Assembly (NCBI GenBank): GCA_963812775.1
Contig: CAWEWH010000008.1
Location: 60,468 to 124,467, forward strand
Origin: an uncultured Alphaproteobacteria bacterium
GTDB taxonomy: Bacteria > Pseudomonadota > Alphaproteobacteria > Rhizobiales > Beijerinckiaceae
DNA length: 64,000 nucleotides
Direction of reading: 5' to 3'
Part shown: piece by piece, positions 4,838 to 64,000 of the stretch
How the letters are laid out: each line of letters begins with the position of its first letter
How positions within the stretch are numbered: position 1 is the first letter of the stretch
Position numbers and translations under genes: made by a program
The notes under the pieces: generated by a model
Seen by the model: only the letters and a program-made list of their open reading frames with translations
Told to the model about the DNA's origin: nothing
The model's database searches: none

Positions 4838-4890
4838 GGCGGCCTCCCGGTTCTTATCGGCGCTTGCCATTGGCCACGGGGCGGGGCTTC

Positions 4891-5748
4891 ATGGCAAGTC
4901 AGGACAGGATGAGCAAAATGCAAACCGAGCGAGCCAATCTGGACCCCAAGGGTGGGACCAAGGTGAATTTCGAACGCGTCAAGCTGGATATGGAAGAGCA
5001 GGTGGCCGTCCTGAAGTTCAACCACCCGGAGGTGTTGAACGCCGTCTCGGCCGAGATGCTCGGCGGCCTGAAGGACGCCCTCGATTTCGTCGAGGACCAA
5101 AGCGGCGCGCGCTGCCTGGTGATCACCGGCGAGGGCCGCGCCTTCTGCGCCGGCGCCAACCTGCAGGGCCGCGGCCAGCAGGGCAATCGCCGCGATCCAG
5201 GCGCCACCCTGGAGACAGGCTACCACCCGATCCTGCGCCGACTGCGCAATCTGCCCATGCCGATCGTCACCGCCGTCAACGGGACGGCGGCCGGCGTCGG
5301 CATGAGCTTCGCGCTTATGGGCGACATGGTGCTGGTGGCGCGCTCGGCCTATTTCCTGCAGGCTTTTCGCCGCATCGGCCTGGTGCCGGACGGCGGCTCC
5401 ACCTGGATCCTGCCGCGCCTCGTCGGCCGCGCCCGCGCCATGGAACTGTCGCTCATGGGCGAGCGGCTGCCGGCCGAGACGGCGCTGCAATGGGGACTGA
5501 TCAACCGCGTCTATGACGACGCGGCCCTGATGGACGAGGCGATGAAGCTGGCGCGCGATCTCGCCAACGGCCCGACCGTGGCGCTGAGCCTCATCCGCCG
5601 CCTCTATTGGGAGAGCCCCGAGAATTCCTACGAGCAGCAGCTCGATCTGGAGCGGCAATCGCAGAAGATCGCCGGCAACAGCGAGGATGCGCGCGAAGGC
5701 GTCACCGCCTTCCTCGAGAAGCGCCCGGCGCAGTTCAAGGGACGGTGA
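4891..5748 (+). CDS. enoyl-CoA hydratase/isomerase family protein
   Basis: VITGEGRAFCAGANL crotonase motif. The start is ambiguous among in-frame ATGs at 4891, 4909 and 4918. Confidence 0.75.
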   Translation: MASQDRMSKMQTERANLDPKGGTKVNFERVKLDMEEQVAVLKFNHPEVLNAVSAEMLGGLKDALDFVEDQSGARCLVITGEGRAFCAGANLQGRGQQGNRRDPGATLETGYHPILRRLRNLPMPIVTAVNGTAAGVGMSFALMGDMVLVARSAYFLQAFRRIGLVPDGGSTWILPRLVGRARAMELSLMGERLPAETALQWGLINRVYDDAALMDEAMKLARDLANGPTVALSLIRRLYWESPENSYEQQLDLERQSQKIAGNSEDAREGVTAFLEKRPAQFKGR

Positions 5749-5750
5749 TC

Positions 5751-6612
5751 ATGGAGGCGCCAGCCGGCCACGCCCTCAACGCCGACCAGGTCGCCTATTG
5801 GAACGGCACCGGCGGGCGGCATTGGACCGAGCGCCAAGCCTCGCAGGACGCCATGCTGGCGCCCGTCGCCGACCTGCTCATCGCTCGCGCCAGGCCGGCG
5901 GCGGGCGAGCGCGTCATCGACGTGGGCTGCGGCTGTGGCGCCACCACCATCGCTCTCGCCGCCAAGGTCGGGCCCAAGGGGCACGTGCTCGGCGTCGACA
6001 TCTCGGCCCCCATGCTGGCGCGGGCGCGCACGCTCGCCCCGCCGAATGCGCCGCTTGAGTTCGTCCTCGCTGACGCCACGGTGCATGGCTTCGAGCCCGA
6101 AAAATTCGATCTCCTCGCCTCGCGCTTCGGCGTCATGTTCTTCGCCGAGCCGGCGGTGTCGTTCGCCAATCTGCGCACGGCCCTGAAGCCGGGGGCGCGC
6201 GTCGCCTTCGCGTGCTGGTGCGAGCCGCGCGACAATCCCTGGATCATGACGCCGCTGCAGGCCGTCTATAAGCACGTGCCGCGCCCGCCTCGGCCGGGTC
6301 CCGATGGAGCCGGGTCCGTTCTCGTTCGCGTCGGAGGAGCGCGTGCGCGGCATCCTCACAGCGGCGGGCTTCGCCGAGGTGGCGATGCAGCCGCAAAACA
6401 TCTCCCTCGACATCGCGGCGGGCGGCGGCCTCGAGGCCGGCGTCGACACGGCGCTCAGCGTGGGGCCGGCCGCCCGCGCGCTGCAGGATCAGCCACGCGA
6501 GGTCATCGAGGCGGCGCGCGTCTCCGTGCGCGAGGTGCTGGCGCCGCTCGTCAAAGGCGACGGCATCCTGCTGCCCGCCTCGTTCTGGATCGTGACGGCG
6601 CGCGCGCCCTGA
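5751..6612 (+). pseudogene. class I SAM-dependent methyltransferase, interrupted by a +1 frameshift near 6290-6305
   Basis: The N-terminal part (VIDVGCGCGATT, SAM-binding motif I) is in one frame up to ...HVPRPPRPGP. The C-terminal part (MEPGPFSFASEERVRGILTAAGF...) continues in the +1 frame as ORF 6304..6612. Confidence 0.6.
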
Positions 6613-7168: not shown

Positions 7169-8134
7169 ATGTCGACCGTCATCGTGGGCGGCGCTGGCTT
7201 CATCGGCCGTCGCCTTATTCCGCTTCTCCTTGCACGCGGCGAGAGCGTCGTGTGCTTCGACATCAATGTCACCGGCGCGAGCACCTTCGGCGACGGCGTC
7301 AAGCTCGTGCGTGGCGACGTGACCCAGTTCGACGATGTGATGGCGGCGGTGGCCGAGGCAAAGCCTGAACGCCTCGTCAATTTATCCTATCATATCGGCA
7401 GCGACCTGCCGCCGCATATCGCCACGAAGCTCAATGTCCTCGGCATGGACAATTGTTTCGAGGCGGCGCGCCTTTGCGGTGTCAAGCACACGATGTACGC
7501 AAGCTCGCTTGCGGTGAACGGTCAGCAGCGGCACTTCGGCGAACGCCCCCTCACCGAGGACGACTTCCGTCACGGCGACTACCAGTATGCCGTCTGCAAG
7601 ATTTTCAACGAATGGCAGGCCAAGGATTACCGCGACAAGTACGGCATGATCATCACCGGCCTGCGTCCCGCCAACGTCACGGGTCCCGATAAGCTCCGCG
7701 GCTCGGTCGATCACGTCAACTGCATCGTCCAGCCGGCACGCGGCAAATCCGTCACGTTCCCGCATCGCGACGCCATGCGCTGCCCGATCCATGTCGAGGA
7801 CATCGCCGAAGTGTTCGCGCGCCTGATCATGGCCGAAAAGCCCAAGCACGCCATCTACAATTCCGGCGGCCACGCGATCAGCCTCGGCGACCTTGCCGCC
7901 ATGGTGCGCGAGTTCCTGCCCGACGCCGACATCCGCTTCGAGCGCGACAGCGGCGGCCGCGAGATATCCGGCAACTTCCTGATCGACAACACCCGGCTCG
8001 TCGAGGAGTTCGCCGTGCAATACGCGCCCTTCCGCAGCCGGGTGCTGGAAATCATCAACGACATCCGCCGCGAGGAGGGGAAGCCGCCGATCGGCGATCG
8101 CACGGCGGCGGCGCCGAGGGCGGCGCGCGGCTGA
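7169..8134 (+). CDS. NAD-dependent epimerase/dehydratase family protein
   Basis: MSTVIVGGAGFIGRRL Rossmann motif and a YxxxK active site (YAVCK). Confidence 0.8.
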   Translation: MSTVIVGGAGFIGRRLIPLLLARGESVVCFDINVTGASTFGDGVKLVRGDVTQFDDVMAAVAEAKPERLVNLSYHIGSDLPPHIATKLNVLGMDNCFEAARLCGVKHTMYASSLAVNGQQRHFGERPLTEDDFRHGDYQYAVCKIFNEWQAKDYRDKYGMIITGLRPANVTGPDKLRGSVDHVNCIVQPARGKSVTFPHRDAMRCPIHVEDIAEVFARLIMAEKPKHAIYNSGGHAISLGDLAAMVREFLPDADIRFERDSGGREISGNFLIDNTRLVEEFAVQYAPFRSRVLEIINDIRREEGKPPIGDRTAAAPRAARG

Positions 8135-22399: not shown

Positions 22400-23030
22400 C
22401 ATTGGTAAATTAACACATATGGCATGAATATCCAAATCACCCTGCAAGGAAGCCAAGGCTTCCGAGGGGCAATGACTTGTCAACGAACGCGTTCATCAAG
22501 TATTAAATTGGCTGTTATTGCGCCGAACACTTTGTCAAGCACAGAATAGTACGATGAAATACTTGCGCCTTGCAGCAACGATTGGCTGACCCGCAACTGC
22601 TAGAGGCATCGACATCGCGAATCACAAAATGTGGGGCAGTATTTTGTCATAACAGGGCACATATTTACTGCGGATTCGACCATCGCTCCCGCCCCGAGAC
22701 GACGCGCGCGAAGTATAAATTCTTTGCAACGAACCTGCTGTGGACAAGTGCGAGGATCGTTTTTGCGCGCGTCGTCGTGTCGTCGCGTCGACAAAGAATC
22801 GCATCAGCGCTGATTCGCAAGGCGCGTCGTCACGACGCGATCACGCGCACAACGTCATCGCGCGGCGTCCATCACGTTCGAAGATGTGTCGGTCGCCCGC
22901 AGCGCGTGTCGCTCTCTGCCTCCGTCGCGCCTTGCCGCCGCGAGACGCGTGGCGGGATGACAAAGCCGAGGTGCCTTCCTATGTCGTATCGGGAGCGACG
23001 GCCGGTGCCGCCGGCATGAACGAGGAGGGA
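22400..23030. promoter_or_regulatory. unusually long AT-rich non-coding region with three adjacent palindromes (GGAAGCCAAGGCTTCC, TGACTTGTCA, GAACGCGTTC at 22447-22494) and a structured GC-rich 5' leader
   Basis: There is no credible ORF. GC content drops sharply relative to the flanks. The palindromes are seen directly. The region lies upstream of the DUF2076 gene. Confidence 0.45.
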
Positions 23031-60374: not shown

Positions 60375-60442
60375 CCGGCGCCTCTGAAATGCCCGGCATG
60401 TCCCGGCCGCCGGGACATGCCGGTCGCTTGCTGGAGGACACG

Positions 60443-60634
60443 ATGACCCACAAGTTCAACGTCGGGCAGTCGGTGGTGTTTGCCGGCATGCCGTCGCAGT
60501 TGCGGCCGAACGGTCAGTTCCAGATCATCCGGCAATTGCCTCCCGACATGCGCGGCGAGCCGCTCTACCGCATCAAGACGGCGGGCGAGAGCTATGAGCG
60601 CATGGTGCGCGAAAGCCAGATCAAGCGCAGCTAG
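60443..60634 (+). CDS. small conserved hypothetical protein (63 aa)
   Basis: GGAGGA Shine-Dalgarno; MTHKFNVGQSVVFAGMPSQLRPNGQFQIIRQLPPDMRGEPLYRIKTAGESYERMVRESQIKRS. Confidence 0.5.
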   Translation: MTHKFNVGQSVVFAGMPSQLRPNGQFQIIRQLPPDMRGEPLYRIKTAGESYERMVRESQIKRS

Positions 60635-60833: not shown

Positions 60834-61556
60834 CTAGCAATGCAGATAAGTCGGGTCGAACTCGGCGCGCCGTTGCAGGCCGCCCCAGTCGACAATGGTG
60901 ACGAGCCCATCGCGGATGCGGATCAGCCCCTCGCGCTTCAGTTTCTGAATGCTGCGGTTCACCTGCACGAGCGACAGGCCGAGGGCGTCGCCGAGCTCCT
61001 GCTGGGTCAACGACAGCTGGAAGCTGTTGGAGGTGGTCAGGCCGGCTGTGCGGAAGCGATGGAACAGCTCGCACAGGAGATGTGCCGTGCGCCCCGCCGC
61101 CGGGCGGCCGCCGACCACGACGATCCATTCGCGGAACACCGCCGCGTCGACCAAAGTGTCACGCCAGAACGTCTGGCCGATGCGCGGGAAGCGGGCGATC
61201 AACTCGCGCACGCGCTCGTGGCGGATCAGCGCCACCTTGCTCGGCAGCAGCGTCGCCAGACCATGATCCATGATCTTCAGGTGCAGGCTCTGCAGATCGG
61301 GGATATCGCCCGGCAGGTGAAACGACAGGATCTGTCGCCGGCCGCTCGCCAGCATCTTGTAGCGGCAGGCAAAGCCGTCGAGCAGGATGGCGCACTCGGT
61401 CGGGATGTCGCCCTCGCGCACCACGTCCTCGTCGGCATCGAAGTCCTTCAGCGTCACCGGCAGCGCCGTGATGGCGGCCCGCTCCTCGCGGGCGAGCGGT
61501 CCCACCTGGCTGAGCTTGCGGGCGAGAACGTCGATCTCGGCCAGTCGTGCATGCAT
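60834..61556 (-). CDS. Crp/Fnr family transcriptional regulator
   Basis: A cNMP-binding-like beta-barrel plus a C-terminal HTH LSLTQQELGDALGLSLVQVNRSIQKLKREGLI; 240 aa from MHARLAE. Confidence 0.75.
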   Translation of the reverse strand: MHARLAEIDVLARKLSQVGPLAREERAAITALPVTLKDFDADEDVVREGDIPTECAILLDGFACRYKMLASGRRQILSFHLPGDIPDLQSLHLKIMDHGLATLLPSKVALIRHERVRELIARFPRIGQTFWRDTLVDAAVFREWIVVVGGRPAAGRTAHLLCELFHRFRTAGLTTSNSFQLSLTQQELGDALGLSLVQVNRSIQKLKREGLIRIRDGLVTIVDWGGLQRRAEFDPTYLHC

Positions 61557-61727
61557 GGTGCCAATACCTTCAACGCCCGAGCTCGAGGCCCGGCTTCCGA
61601 TGGATGAGCCGGAACGGTACGCAATTGTTCCAGGAATTGTTCCGAAGGCGCGGTCACCGACCCGCGGCGTCTCTGGAACCACGGCAGTTTCGCGTCGTTC
61701 CCTCACCGGGGAGGCCCGAGGAGCGAC

Positions 61728-62037: not shown

Positions 62038-62559
62038 GTGCGCGAGCCCTTAGAGCAGATCGCCGCCGCGCGCTTCGATGAGGCGTGGCTCTCGGCAATG
62101 GCGATCGGGACAAGCGTTGTGACAGTGCGCGGCAAGAACGGCTCGAAGGCCTATCATCTCTTTCTCGACATCGTCGCCGCCGTGGCGCGCTCGCCGGACG
62201 GCTTGACGGTGCGCGAGATCGGCCGCGTGCTCGATCTGCAGCCCGAGCTTGTCGCGCATTGCATCGCGGTGCATTTCTATCTCGAGACGCGGCCGCGCGA
62301 GCCGATCCCGATACCGACGCCAGCCGATTACCGCGTGCCCGGTCTCGATGAGCGAATCGACCGCGCGCGGCTCGAAATCCTGGGCATCGGATCTTGCCGG
62401 CCGCGGCGGCGACGAGCCGCGCGGCAACGGCCGTCGGCAGCACTGAGCCAACGCATGGATGCGCCGTTGCCGCGGCGGCCCATGCGTCGGGCCGCTCCTT
62501 TCGCATCGATGCGATTGGGAACCTTCGCGGGCCTGTCGCCATTTTTCAGTGGTCCTTGA
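62038..62559 (+). CDS. small predicted HTH protein, paralog of the gene at 57284; the C-terminal extension is probably artefactual
   Basis: See 57284. The last ~60 aa are Arg/Pro-rich and low-complexity, which suggests read-through after a lost stop or frameshift. Confidence 0.4.
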   Translation: MREPLEQIAAARFDEAWLSAMAIGTSVVTVRGKNGSKAYHLFLDIVAAVARSPDGLTVREIGRVLDLQPELVAHCIAVHFYLETRPREPIPIPTPADYRVPGLDERIDRARLEILGIGSCRPRRRRAARQRPSAALSQRMDAPLPRRPMRRAAPFASMRLGTFAGLSPFFSGP

Positions 62560-62598
62560 CCGTTCCGGCATGCGACGCCGCCAGCGAAGGAGAGCGAC

Positions 62599-62850
62599 AT
62601 GGCAAAGTACTCCCGCGCAGCCTCGAAGACCGTCGAGAGCGCCATGCGCCGGCGCAAGAAGGGAACGCTGAAGAGCGGCCGGAGCGGCAAGACGGTGAAG
62701 AGCCGCAAGCAGGCAATCGCCATCGGGCTCTCAGAGGCGCGGCGCAAGGGCAAGAAGGTGCCGGCGCGGCGGCGTTCGAGCCGCCCGTCGGCGCGGCGCG
62801 CCACCCGCAAGTCGACGCGCACCTCGGCCCGGAGGTCGAGCCGCCGATAG
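62599..62850 (+). CDS. small highly basic conserved hypothetical protein (83 aa)
   Basis: GAAGGAGAGCGAC-ATG Shine-Dalgarno; MAKYSRAASKTVESAMRRRKKGTLKSGRSGKTVKSRKQAIAIGLSEARRKGKKV... Confidence 0.55.
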   Translation: MAKYSRAASKTVESAMRRRKKGTLKSGRSGKTVKSRKQAIAIGLSEARRKGKKVPARRRSSRPSARRATRKSTRTSARRSSRR

Positions 62851-62868
62851 GCACGGCGCGTCCCGCAA

Positions 62869-62900
62869 ACGAAAAGGCCGGCGCTGAGGCCGGCCTTTCG
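62869..62900 (+). terminator. intrinsic terminator AAAAGGCCGGC-gctga-GGCCGGCCTTTCGAAAAT
   Basis: A GC stem followed by a T-tract, directly after the 62599..62850 gene. Confidence 0.65.
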
Positions 62901-62910
62901 AAAATCCCGT

Positions 62911-63086
62911 TGATGCTGGGGCTAGTGTGCCGAACTTGAAGTTCGCTACATTGCCTGGATCAGCTAGCTCGCGAACTTCAAATTCGAAAAGCACACTAGA
63001 AACAATCTCTTCTAGTGTCGCTTTGATTCCAAAATTCGCTACGAGGCCTCCATCAAGATCATGCGAATTTTGGAATCGCGACACTA
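62911..63086. repeat. two tandem ~80-nt palindromic elements built from GAAyTTnAAnTTC dyads and CTAGTGT(G/C)GC...GC(A/G)ACACTAG arms
   Basis: Element 1: CTAGTGTGCCGAACTTGAAGTTCGC...GCGAACTTCAAATTCGAAAAGCACACTAG. Element 2: CTAGTGTCGCTTTGATTCCAAAATTCGC...GCGAATTTTGGAATCGCGACACTAG. A third arm copy lies at 63715-63765 on the opposite strand. Confidence 0.6.
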
Positions 63087-63467
63087 GCCGCCGCACACCG
63101 CTTCGATCTTCGCCTTCAGGGTCTGCGCGTTGAAGGGCTTGACGATGTAATTGTTCACGCCGGCCTTCTTGGCGGCGATGACGTTCTCGGTCTTCGATTC
63201 CGCCGTCACCATGATGAAGGGCACGCTGCGCAGCCCTTCGTCGGTGCGCACCTGCCGCAAGAGCTCGTAGCCCGTCATCGGCTCCATGTTCCAGTCGGAG
63301 ATGACGAGCGAGTACTTCTTCTCTTTCATCTTGGCCAGCGCGCTCGATCCGTCGGGCGCATCGTCCACGTCTTCGAATCCAAGCTGTTTCAAGAGATTGC
63401 GGATGATCCGAACCATGGTCTGGTAGTCATCGACCACGAGGATCGGCATCGACAGATCAAGAGCCAT
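63084..63467 (-). CDS. CheY-like single-domain response regulator
   Basis: 127 aa from MALDLSMPILVVDDYQTMVRIIRNLLKQLGFEDVDDAPDG...ISDWNMEPMTGYELL...VKPFNAQTLKAKIE; it closely resembles E. coli CheY. Confidence 0.8.
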   Translation of the reverse strand: MALDLSMPILVVDDYQTMVRIIRNLLKQLGFEDVDDAPDGSSALAKMKEKKYSLVISDWNMEPMTGYELLRQVRTDEGLRSVPFIMVTAESKTENVIAAKKAGVNNYIVKPFNAQTLKAKIEAVCGG

Positions 63468-63863
63468 GATTCGCTCCGCTCGCACCGAAAGTCGGCCGGC
63501 GCGTCCCTGAAATGAGGCGCGCTCGCGCCTTACCCACCGGGCCACGTTATAAAAAGGCCGTTTCGAAGCAGTTAATGGGACCTGCCGCAACAGTGTATGG
63601 TGACTTTTGCGTATTGATCGGTCCGCCGCTACGGCACCCTGAGGCCGTTGCAAGTGTGACAGTTCCGCGATTCGCCTGTCGTTGAGGCGGCATTGGATCA
63701 AGTTTCGCACCGTGAGCGACACTGTAAAAGGCTTGATTCTCGTGTGCTTTTTGAATTTGAAGCTCGCCGGACGCCAATCGATGGCTTGGCGGACCTCAGA
63801 TTCAGCCCGCTAGCCCCGGCAAATCGGTCATAAGGGCGGGGTCCACCGGAGCAGAACCGCGAC

Positions 63864-64000
63864 ATGTTGCGCACCTATGCCTTCGAAGATCTCAGCATCG
63901 GCATGCGCGAGACCCTGATGCGGACGGTGATGGAAAGCGACGTAACCAGCTTCGCCAGCGTCACCGGCGACAACAACCCGATCCACCTCGACGAGCGCTA
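63864..64000 (+). CDS. MaoC-like (R)-hydratase / hotdog-fold dehydratase, partial at the window end
   Basis: MLRTYAFEDLSIGMRETLMRTVMESDVTSFASVTGDNNPIHLDER. Confidence 0.6.
   Translation, partial: MLRTYAFEDLSIGMRETLMRTVMESDVTSFASVTGDNNPIHLDER

Follow-up and report, generated by a model that had tools for sequence, protein, structure and literature searches.

RUP of Streptococcus pneumoniae is linked to IS630-Spn1, and intergenic palindromic repeats of about 100 nt are known in Alphaproteobacteria as RIME (Rhizobium-specific intergenic mosaic elements) and, in Brucella, as Bru-RS. RUP and Nezha of cyanobacteria are listed as MITEs in PMC3733652. The same paper describes Correia/NEMIS of Neisseria and ERIC of enterobacteria, palindromes of about 100–160 nt that are often co-transcribed with adjacent genes and whose long hairpins can alter mRNA stability, as well as REP/BIME/REPIN sequences with RAYT, extragenic palindromes that often form inverted doublets and occur in the same bacterial groups as the family analyzed here. 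IS630-family elements cut and paste into TA, duplicating it (PMC2170065), and IS630 prefers a TA inside 5'-CTAG-3' (Tenzen and Ohtsubo 1991, as cited in PMC2170065).

We analyzed the palindromic repeats around a cheY-like gene in a 64-kb window (the whole stretch of DNA under analysis). The sequence at 62922–63087 is very probably a single 166-nt copy of a non-autonomous MITE of the IS630/Tc1-mariner superfamily.

The 166-nt unit at the cheY stop codon

The following features were located in the window.

62599–62850, plus strand: DUF6496 gene, convergent with cheY (Pfam, E=2.3e-25)
62877–62896, unstranded: G+C-rich hairpin GGCCGGC-N6-GCCGGCC, followed by TTTTCGTTTG on the minus strand (direct reading of the sequence)
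62922–63087, minus strand: intact double-hairpin unit, very probably a MITE (nhmmer match to the unit profile)
62922–62925 and 63084–63087: terminal CTAG boxes of the 166-nt unit
62922–62999: hairpin B, 78 nt, the first hairpin (H1) of the original prediction
62922–62946, minus strand: outer right arm BR, an IRR-type terminal repeat, GCGAACTTCAAGTTCGGCACACTAG
62947–62970, minus strand: loop of hairpin B
62971–62999, minus strand: inner arm BL, an inverted copy of BR
63000–63011, minus strand: 12-nt spacer separating the hairpins, AAGAGATTGTTT
63012–63087: hairpin A, 76 nt, the second hairpin (H2) of the original prediction
63012–63039, minus strand: inner arm AR, an inverted copy of AL
63040–63062, minus strand: loop of hairpin A, 23 nt
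63063–63087, minus strand: outer left arm AL, an IRL-type terminal repeat, CTAGTGTCGCGATTCCAAAATTCGC
63084–63467, minus strand: gene of a cheY-like single-domain response regulator, 127 aa, outside the MITE
about 63651–63813, plus strand: decayed second unit (relic) between cheY and maoC (nhmmer, E=1.5e-8, profile positions 20–165)

Positions 1–166 of the nhmmer profile built from 61 units of other genomes matched 63087–62922 with an E-value of 4.8e-32 and a score of 105.9 bits. G+C content of the unit was 45% versus 66% for the window. No coding capacity was found in the 166 nt, the open reading frames overlapping it being spurious only. Profile and pattern searches of the window revealed no copy beyond the intact unit and the relic. 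A transposase gene was also absent from the window, the partner IS being found in other genomes; the window copy is thus a passive passenger.

Hairpin A consists of AL, its loop and AR, with arms of 15 nt that are 100% complementary, and hairpin B of BL, its loop and BR, with arms of 16 nt that are 94% complementary. Folded as single-stranded DNA, H1 and H2 reached −22.7 and −25.1 kcal/mol (z = −6.6 and −8.75, respectively), and none of 200 shuffles was equally stable in either case; the RNA fold of the 201-nt region had −97.6 kcal/mol (z = −8.35). Two tandem, strongly folding hairpins of 78 and 76 nt just 3' of the receiver gene are therefore present, as had been predicted from the sequence. 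Each opens with CTAGTGT and closes with ACACTAG. The heptamer CTAGTGT occurred four times in the window (chance expectation, 0.8), and all four occurrences were hairpin ends. GTAG-like tetranucleotides lie beside the stems in both loops (GCTAC). Neither the consensus of the alphaproteobacterial LexA box nor that of the FNR/FixK box fitted the arms when compared by eye.

Several details of the original prediction required correction. Its arm formula, GAAyTTnAAnTTC, fits H1, but the arms of H2 read GATTCCAAAATTCGC and GCGAATTTTGGAATC. The GAAC-N5-GTTC dyads, counted as five, do exist, but occupy only three sites, because two of them are self-palindromic and were counted on both strands. The two hairpins were taken for separate elements, but they are halves of one 166-nt unit that recurs whole. 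All four arms are mutually related, so the unit can be folded either as two hairpins or as one long hairpin.

The product of the cheY-like gene matched Pfam Response_reg with an E-value of 1.4e-29. The unit is placed between this gene and the convergent DUF6496 gene. Read as its reverse complement, 63084–63086 is the TAG stop codon of cheY, which falls within the CTAG at 63084–63087; the predicted location of the receiver stop codon within the terminal CTAG box is thereby confirmed by the coordinates. The unit begins at this stop codon and runs in the direction of cheY. Beyond it, the G+C-rich hairpin at 62877–62896 is followed on the cheY strand by a T-run, TTTTCGTTTG, and from its sequence is a probable shared terminator of the DUF6496 gene and cheY; the list returned by a consensus terminator scan did not include it. 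Because the MITE lies between the stop codon and this G+C-rich hairpin with a T-run, it is probably transcribed as a 166-nt structured 3' UTR of cheY. A consensus promoter scan of 62500–64000 failed to find a sigma-70-type promoter; hence, no promoter role is assignable to the relic upstream of cheY.

Dispersal of the family and its IS630-family relatives

A degenerate pattern of arm AL was scanned once against one genome per species (185,579 species) and found at at least 120 loci. Among the matches listed, nearly all belonged to Alphaproteobacteria, including Xanthobacteraceae, Bradyrhizobium, Hyphomicrobium, Mesorhizobium, Caulobacter, Paramagnetospirillum, Rhodospirillaceae and others, and a few came from Solirubrobacterales or Acidobacteria. 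Several assemblies among these matches had 3–4 contigs each with the pattern, e.g., Hyphomicrobiales Dino_bin40 and Xanthobacteraceae SPRUCE 291. Sixty-one of the listed loci could be aligned with an identical 166-nt two-hairpin layout: CTAG-arm-loop-arm-CTAG, a 12-nt spacer, and again CTAG-arm-loop-arm-CTAG. Similarity among the 61 aligned units ended exactly at the outer CTAGs, and the flanks were unrelated. In the scan and in profile searches of the fetched sequences, the unit profile HMM found at least 126 places, at least 93 of them full length; 63 of these 93 units, among the matches listed, bore CTAG at both ends. Single-hairpin forms of the family also occur. The density of units was about 1 per 100 kb. 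Uniqueness to this locus had been named as the outcome that would favor plain terminators; the opposite was found, the element being widely dispersed.

A BLAST search of 72,556 plasmids with the window element and the family consensus returned only one site, on Roseibium/Labrenzia plasmids; at blastn sensitivity, no unit was found on rhizobial megaplasmids, including those of Sinorhizobium. Rfam 15 gave no relevant match, either at gathering score in the window (tRNA only) or at E≤10 in 62800–63900 (chance-level hits). No description of the family was found in the searchable literature, also when arm sequences were used as text; ISfinder and Dfam lie outside that search.

Information content in the 93 full-length units was 1.30–1.75 bits per position in the arms, where the value of AL is inflated by ascertainment as AL was the search pattern, 0.44–0.48 bits in the loops and on average 0.78 bits in the spacer. 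The consensus spacer, found at the equal position and also 12 nt long, reads GCAACTTATGAT, and that of the window unit agreed with it at only 5 of 12 positions. Arm positions were Watson–Crick paired in 93% of cases. Stem mismatches comprised 45 G:T and 69 A:C; as G:T did not exceed A:C, there was no sign of selection on one RNA strand. Changes on both sides were seen in at least three sequences at 33 of the 65 predicted pairs, and subfamilies differ in this way, a pattern to be expected where a single transposase has to fit both arms. A divergent subfamily with the ends GTGTCGC and GTGTGC is represented by the window copy; its AL shared 26 of 30 positions with the consensus left end.

The description of the element as MITE-like was well founded: it is a short, non-coding, dispersed repeat that shares its ends with IS630-family insertion sequences, where they form the terminal repeats. 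Four loci fetched via the arm pattern alone hold IS copies that share the ends of the unit. One of them is complete (L043: 1199 bp, a 365-aa ORF, ends CTAGTGTCCCGAATCTAAACTTCGC...GCGAACTTTCGGTTCAGGACACTAG), while the others are frameshifted (L025), internally deleted (L051) or reduced to a remnant (L115). The L043 ORF scored 264.9 bits with NCBIfam NF033545, "IS630 family transposase" (cutoff, 100), and matched Pfam DDE_3 with an E-value of 1.6e-19; HTH domains were also present. Plasmids of Bradyrhizobium, Sinorhizobium and Rhizobium commonly carry relatives of this transposase. In the Bradyrhizobium barranii plasmid pBb1S5a, an IS of 1214 bp, whose transposase is annotated as IS630 family, starts with CTAATGTCCCGAGTCACAAGTTCGC and ends with GCGAACTTCTGGTCCACCACACTAG. 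The family consensus agreed with this IS at 24 of 30 positions for the left ends and at 27 of 30 for the right ends, versus 21–22 of 30 in the crossed comparisons; with the ends of the L043 IS, the values were 25 and 21 of 30. For the window unit itself, AL matched the left end of the B. barranii IS at 20 of 30 positions and BR matched the right end at 23 of 30. Since the unit and the IS correspond left to left and right to right, the asymmetry between hairpins A and B is that of the ends of the parent IS.

The unit is built as IRL, loop, inverted IRL copy, 12-nt spacer, inverted IRR copy, loop, and IRR. The outer arms are its terminal inverted repeats, which would be bound and cut by the transposase of a related IS630-family element, so that mobilization would proceed in trans. 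Each outer arm pairs with its own internal inverted copy, and for this reason the element reads as two tandem hairpins. A partner IS630-family IS in this organism would be expected to have the ends GTGTCGCGATTCC... and ...GTTCGGCACAC. The CTAG boxes would follow from the insertion of the IS630 family at TA, preferably within CTAG. The duplicated target would probably be TA rather than CTAG; with CTAG at the unit ends, duplications of 2 bp (TA) and 4 bp (CTAG) give identical sequence. The sole unusual trait of the element is its conserved double hairpin, in which each end has an inverted copy further inside.

The position of the element exactly on the cheY stop codon can be explained by the preference of the IS630 family for CTAG, which is rare here and in some cases lies on TAG stops. 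The window contained 27 CTAGs, whereas a Markov model predicts 72 and base composition 200; the intact unit and the relic account for six of the 27, and two others also coincide with TAG stop codons. A TAG stop preceded by C may be one refuge of the depleted tetranucleotide. Insertion at the TA of the stop would regenerate TAG and so leave CheY unchanged. On the Roseibium plasmid, the unit adjoins the TAG of an SDR gene, as in the case of cheY. When unit ends were examined for enrichment at TAG stop codons, 61 of 186 closed an open frame of at least 80 codons, but shifted-frame controls averaged about 40, long frames being common in G+C-rich DNA.

Allelic forms and the cheY locus in relatives

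The insertion upstream of cheY is strongly decayed. Its ends read CAAG...CTAG, and its folding was no better than that of shuffles (z = +0.70 and −0.51). The inverted copy of the arm that had been predicted upstream of the gene is real: 35 nt at 63733–63767 are 89% complementary to 62971–63005. However, this is a mere fragment of the relic at 63651–63813, which extends beyond the stretch originally assigned to it. In L001, a close relative, conservation of the relic was 98%. It is an independent, older insertion that has since decayed; the great difference in decay indicates that the intact unit and the relic arrived at different times.

To compare cheY in relatives, as had been suggested with the original prediction, 80 loci of CheY orthologues (77–90% identity) were fetched from metagenomes. 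In all 80 loci, the cheY stop codon was free of any match to the unit profile, and the downstream sequences differed among themselves. Units elsewhere were found in four loci (L143, L162, L164, and L176); that of L143, about 205 nt upstream of cheY, is an independent insertion. The divergent order of maoC and cheY was kept in 13 orthologue loci with no unit between the genes, which indicates that cheY is native and was not carried as cargo. The spacer between maoC and cheY was about 282 nt in these 13 loci versus 396 nt in the window, an excess comparable in scale to a single insertion (163 nt). Thus, cheY is a native gene, and the intergenic regions on its two sides received separate insertions of unequal age. 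The idea of a mobile cassette carrying the receiver gene is not supported, given the absence of the element at the stop codon of orthologues, the retained maoC–cheY pairing and the independent origin of the upstream copy.

Presence/absence polymorphism was observed between related genomes in two pairs, L164/L185 and the window/L001. In L164, positions 4852–5009 are filled by a unit, where the syntenic L185 has a single CCAG, and the boundaries lie exactly at the tetranucleotide; the empty site reads CCAG, not CTAG, and the two loci are only about 78–88% identical. Another candidate filled/empty pair, L009 versus L061, was rejected, as its alignment was not convincing. The metagenomic locus L001 is 97–99% identical to the window around cheY, with only 87% in the flank on the DUF6496 side. 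At the same site, it carries a 33-nt derivative, CTAGTGTCGCGAATTTCAAATTCGGCACACTAG, in place of the 166 nt, 133 nt being lost. The derivative comprises the first 12 nt of the left arm and the last 21 nt of the right arm, joined across a shared GCGA. Judging by gene spacing, three other contigs encoding an identical CheY have the same short allele. Deletion derivatives consisting of the two outer arms recur in L024, L070, L082, and L117.

Alternative explanations and comparison with known repeats

An RNA-level explanation would make the unit primarily a functional RNA, i.e., a structured 3' UTR or a 3'-derived small RNA that stabilizes, terminates or processes the cheY transcript and was spread by selection. 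The unit does share the strand of cheY, where it separates the stop codon from the probable terminator, its predicted hairpins are very stable (z = −8.35), both-side changes affect 33 of 65 predicted pairs in at least three sequences, and other transcribed bacterial MITEs are reported to act in this manner (PMC3733652). We nevertheless regard this explanation as improbable: no Rfam match was at or near gathering score, the 45 G:T and 69 A:C mismatches reveal no strand-specific RNA selection, the element is absent from the 80 orthologous cheY loci and L001 lacks 133 nt of it, and co-variation of arms is expected anyway for paired transposase-binding sites. A role at the RNA level fits the MITE origin if it is secondary, but not if it is what the element chiefly is. 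An ambitious extension of the MITE reading, in which this is an undescribed Alphaproteobacteria-wide design whose inner arms are needed for propagation, perhaps as extra transposase-binding sites or by extruding a cruciform, and which repeatedly occupies TAG stops as an mRNA-altering 3' UTR, is unlikely. It is also doubtful in the extreme that the dyad-symmetric sequences on both sides of cheY are operators for a dimeric regulator of cheY and its neighbors, or that the hairpins are a simple terminator pair of convergent genes. The operators proposed in the original prediction are contradicted by the presence of the same 166-nt sequence beside unrelated genes at more than 100 loci in many genera; moreover, it is absent from orthologous cheY loci, and the upstream copy is degenerate. 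Regarding terminators, the stems are A+T-rich, a T-run is missing after both hairpins, and the sole terminator-like match of the scan is an alternative pairing across the spacer.

Two other transposition mechanisms deserve consideration. In a composite transposon, the inverted units at 62922–63087 and 63651–63813 would have carried cheY into the locus; the complementary 35-nt arms do flank the gene, and IS630-associated composite transposons are known, according to a title cited in PMC2170065. This origin is very improbable, as maoC and cheY remain paired in 13 loci devoid of any unit, the excess of 396 nt over about 282 nt in the spacer is comparable in scale to one unit (163 nt), and the arrival times differed, since one unit is intact and the other no longer folds. 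Just as improbable, in our view, is a palindrome of the REP/REPIN type, which RAYT, an IS200/IS605-type tyrosine transposase, would move in the form of single-stranded DNA hairpins. The hairpin-doublet appearance of the unit and the GTAG-like tetranucleotides adjoining the stems in the window loops resemble such palindromes, and GTAG and CGTC REP families are present in Bradyrhizobium and R. palustris (PMC3733652). However, the GTAG of the window loops is not conserved (the family consensus reads TTCGCATCATT), the conserved tag being the terminal CTAGTGT; in full-length elements that share these ends, the enzyme encoded is an IS630 DDE transposase and not a tyrosine transposase; and a density of about 1 per 100 kb is far below that of typical REPs.

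Thus, the element is a common kind of selfish DNA, in kind an ordinary IS630-type MITE, and not a regulatory device of cheY. For annotation, a false lead is removed: the dyads are transposon ends, not the control system of a chemotaxis-type regulator. A usable profile was gained for a repeat family common in soil Alphaproteobacteria, with hosts among Bradyrhizobium, Xanthobacteraceae, Hyphomicrobium, Caulobacter and relatives of Magnetospirillum. The link between CTAG targeting and stop codons is a possible follow-up, and the two alleles that occur naturally after cheY, of 166 and 33 nt, may be a test case for the reshaping of 3' UTRs by MITEs. Current understanding of transposons is unchallenged by these results.

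Among known systems, IS630-family insertion sequences (IS630, ISY100, and the copies of L043 and pBb1S5a) have the same ends, CTAGTGTCC...TTCGC and GCGAACTTC...CACACTAG, and CTAG flanks. In contrast to them, the window element has 166 nt instead of about 1.2 kb and lacks a transposase gene, and compared with the full-length IS copies it alone contains an internal inverted copy of each end. Correia/NEMIS and ERIC are comparable to the present family in forming hairpins but differ from it in their unrelated sequences, and the stem mismatches of the present family have no RNA-strand bias. Unlike REP/BIME/REPIN, the family has no conserved GTAG/CGTC tag, has a DDE transposase as partner and reaches a far lower copy density. 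Identity of the unit with RIME is unlikely, judging from the Sinorhizobium megaplasmids, which lack the unit by BLAST. RUP and Nezha, thought to be moved by IS630-type transposases, are likewise short, non-coding, dispersed, mostly intergenic and hairpin-forming, with terminal repeats that copy those of an IS and with mobilization in trans. By description, the present family differs from them in sequence and in its hosts, here Alphaproteobacteria, and its double hairpin has four related arms rather than one pair of terminal repeats.

The cheY stop codon and orthologous loci

The C-terminus and stop codon of the CheY-like response regulator gene (cheY, minus strand) read ...EAVCGG-TAG in the window (63087-63095) versus ...VCGA-TGA in its closest orthologues (L122-L126, loci from other genomes or metagenomes, as are all L-numbers here). 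The last residue and the stop codon thus differ precisely at the insertion point of the MITE. At another cheY orthologue locus (L143, 82% identity), one unit (5630-5796) lay about 205 nt upstream of cheY and a second (7317-7482) about 940 nt downstream. The first is a member of another subfamily (GTGG... ends) and lies in the orientation opposite to that of the window relic, the decayed second unit between cheY and maoC; because of both differences, it represents an independent insertion near cheY.

CTAG sites and neighbouring palindromic repeats

The tetranucleotide CTAG was strongly depleted in the window: 27 occurrences were observed in the whole stretch versus 72 expected from a Markov model and 200 from base composition. 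Besides the CTAG at the cheY stop, two sites in its vicinity coincide with stop codons:
60631-60634, TAG stop of an ORF (60389-60634, plus strand)
60834-60837, TAG stop of a Crp/FNR-family gene (60834-61706, minus strand)

An additional CTAG (GATCAGCTAGCTCG, 62964-62967) was located in the loop of hairpin B of the window MITE, and the family consensus lacks it; this site could act as one more insertion target within the element.

A distinct CTAG-bounded palindromic repeat (...GAGCATGATCTTTTCCGAAAACCGGTTCCCACTTTTCGGGATCATGCTCTAG) directly adjoined MITE units at no fewer than ten loci (L061, at 5085-5176, as well as L121, L093, L033, L089, L062, L146, L052, L131, L036, and L043). The CTAG of the neighbouring ...GAGCATGATCTTTTCCGAAAACCGGTTCCCACTTTTCGGGATCATGCTCTAG repeat seems to be the target used by the MITE. 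This repeat was not found in the 64-kb window.

Other inverted repeats of the window were as follows:
22698-22776, 15-nt inverted repeat GACGACGCGCGCGAA / TTTGCGCGCGTCGTC, arms 93% complementary, with 49 A+T-richer bases between them
60393-60423, perfect 15-nt palindrome CCGGCATGTCCCGGC / GCCGGGACATGCCGG, just past the end (60374) of a cold-shock-protein-like ORF

The former, which contains the sole other near-match to the GAAnTTnAAnTTCGC dyad in the window, was unrelated to the MITE profile; the latter is probably the terminator hairpin of the cold-shock-protein-like ORF.

Altered ends and occurrence outside Alphaproteobacteria

In one subfamily of units, the ends CTAGTGGTCC.../CTAGTGGAGC... 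replace CTAGTGTCCC.../CTAGTGTGG..., the partner arms being changed to match. Some copies were in tandem with a canonical unit. The copies were:
L164, 4852-5009
L108, 7730-7877
L009, 1291-1458
L143, 5630-5796

Among the matches listed, the 24-nt terminal motif of the unit also occurred outside Alphaproteobacteria, in Solirubrobacterales (L012, L016, L023, L088, L112) and Acidobacteria (L005, L014). L005 and all the Solirubrobacterales loci had a G+C-rich interior that differed from that of the unit; in L016, two copies of the motif faced each other in inverted orientation at a distance of about 170 nt. The canonical two-hairpin unit was present in L014. These occurrences suggest that the IS630-type ends in these groups are related, or that transfer across phyla has taken place.
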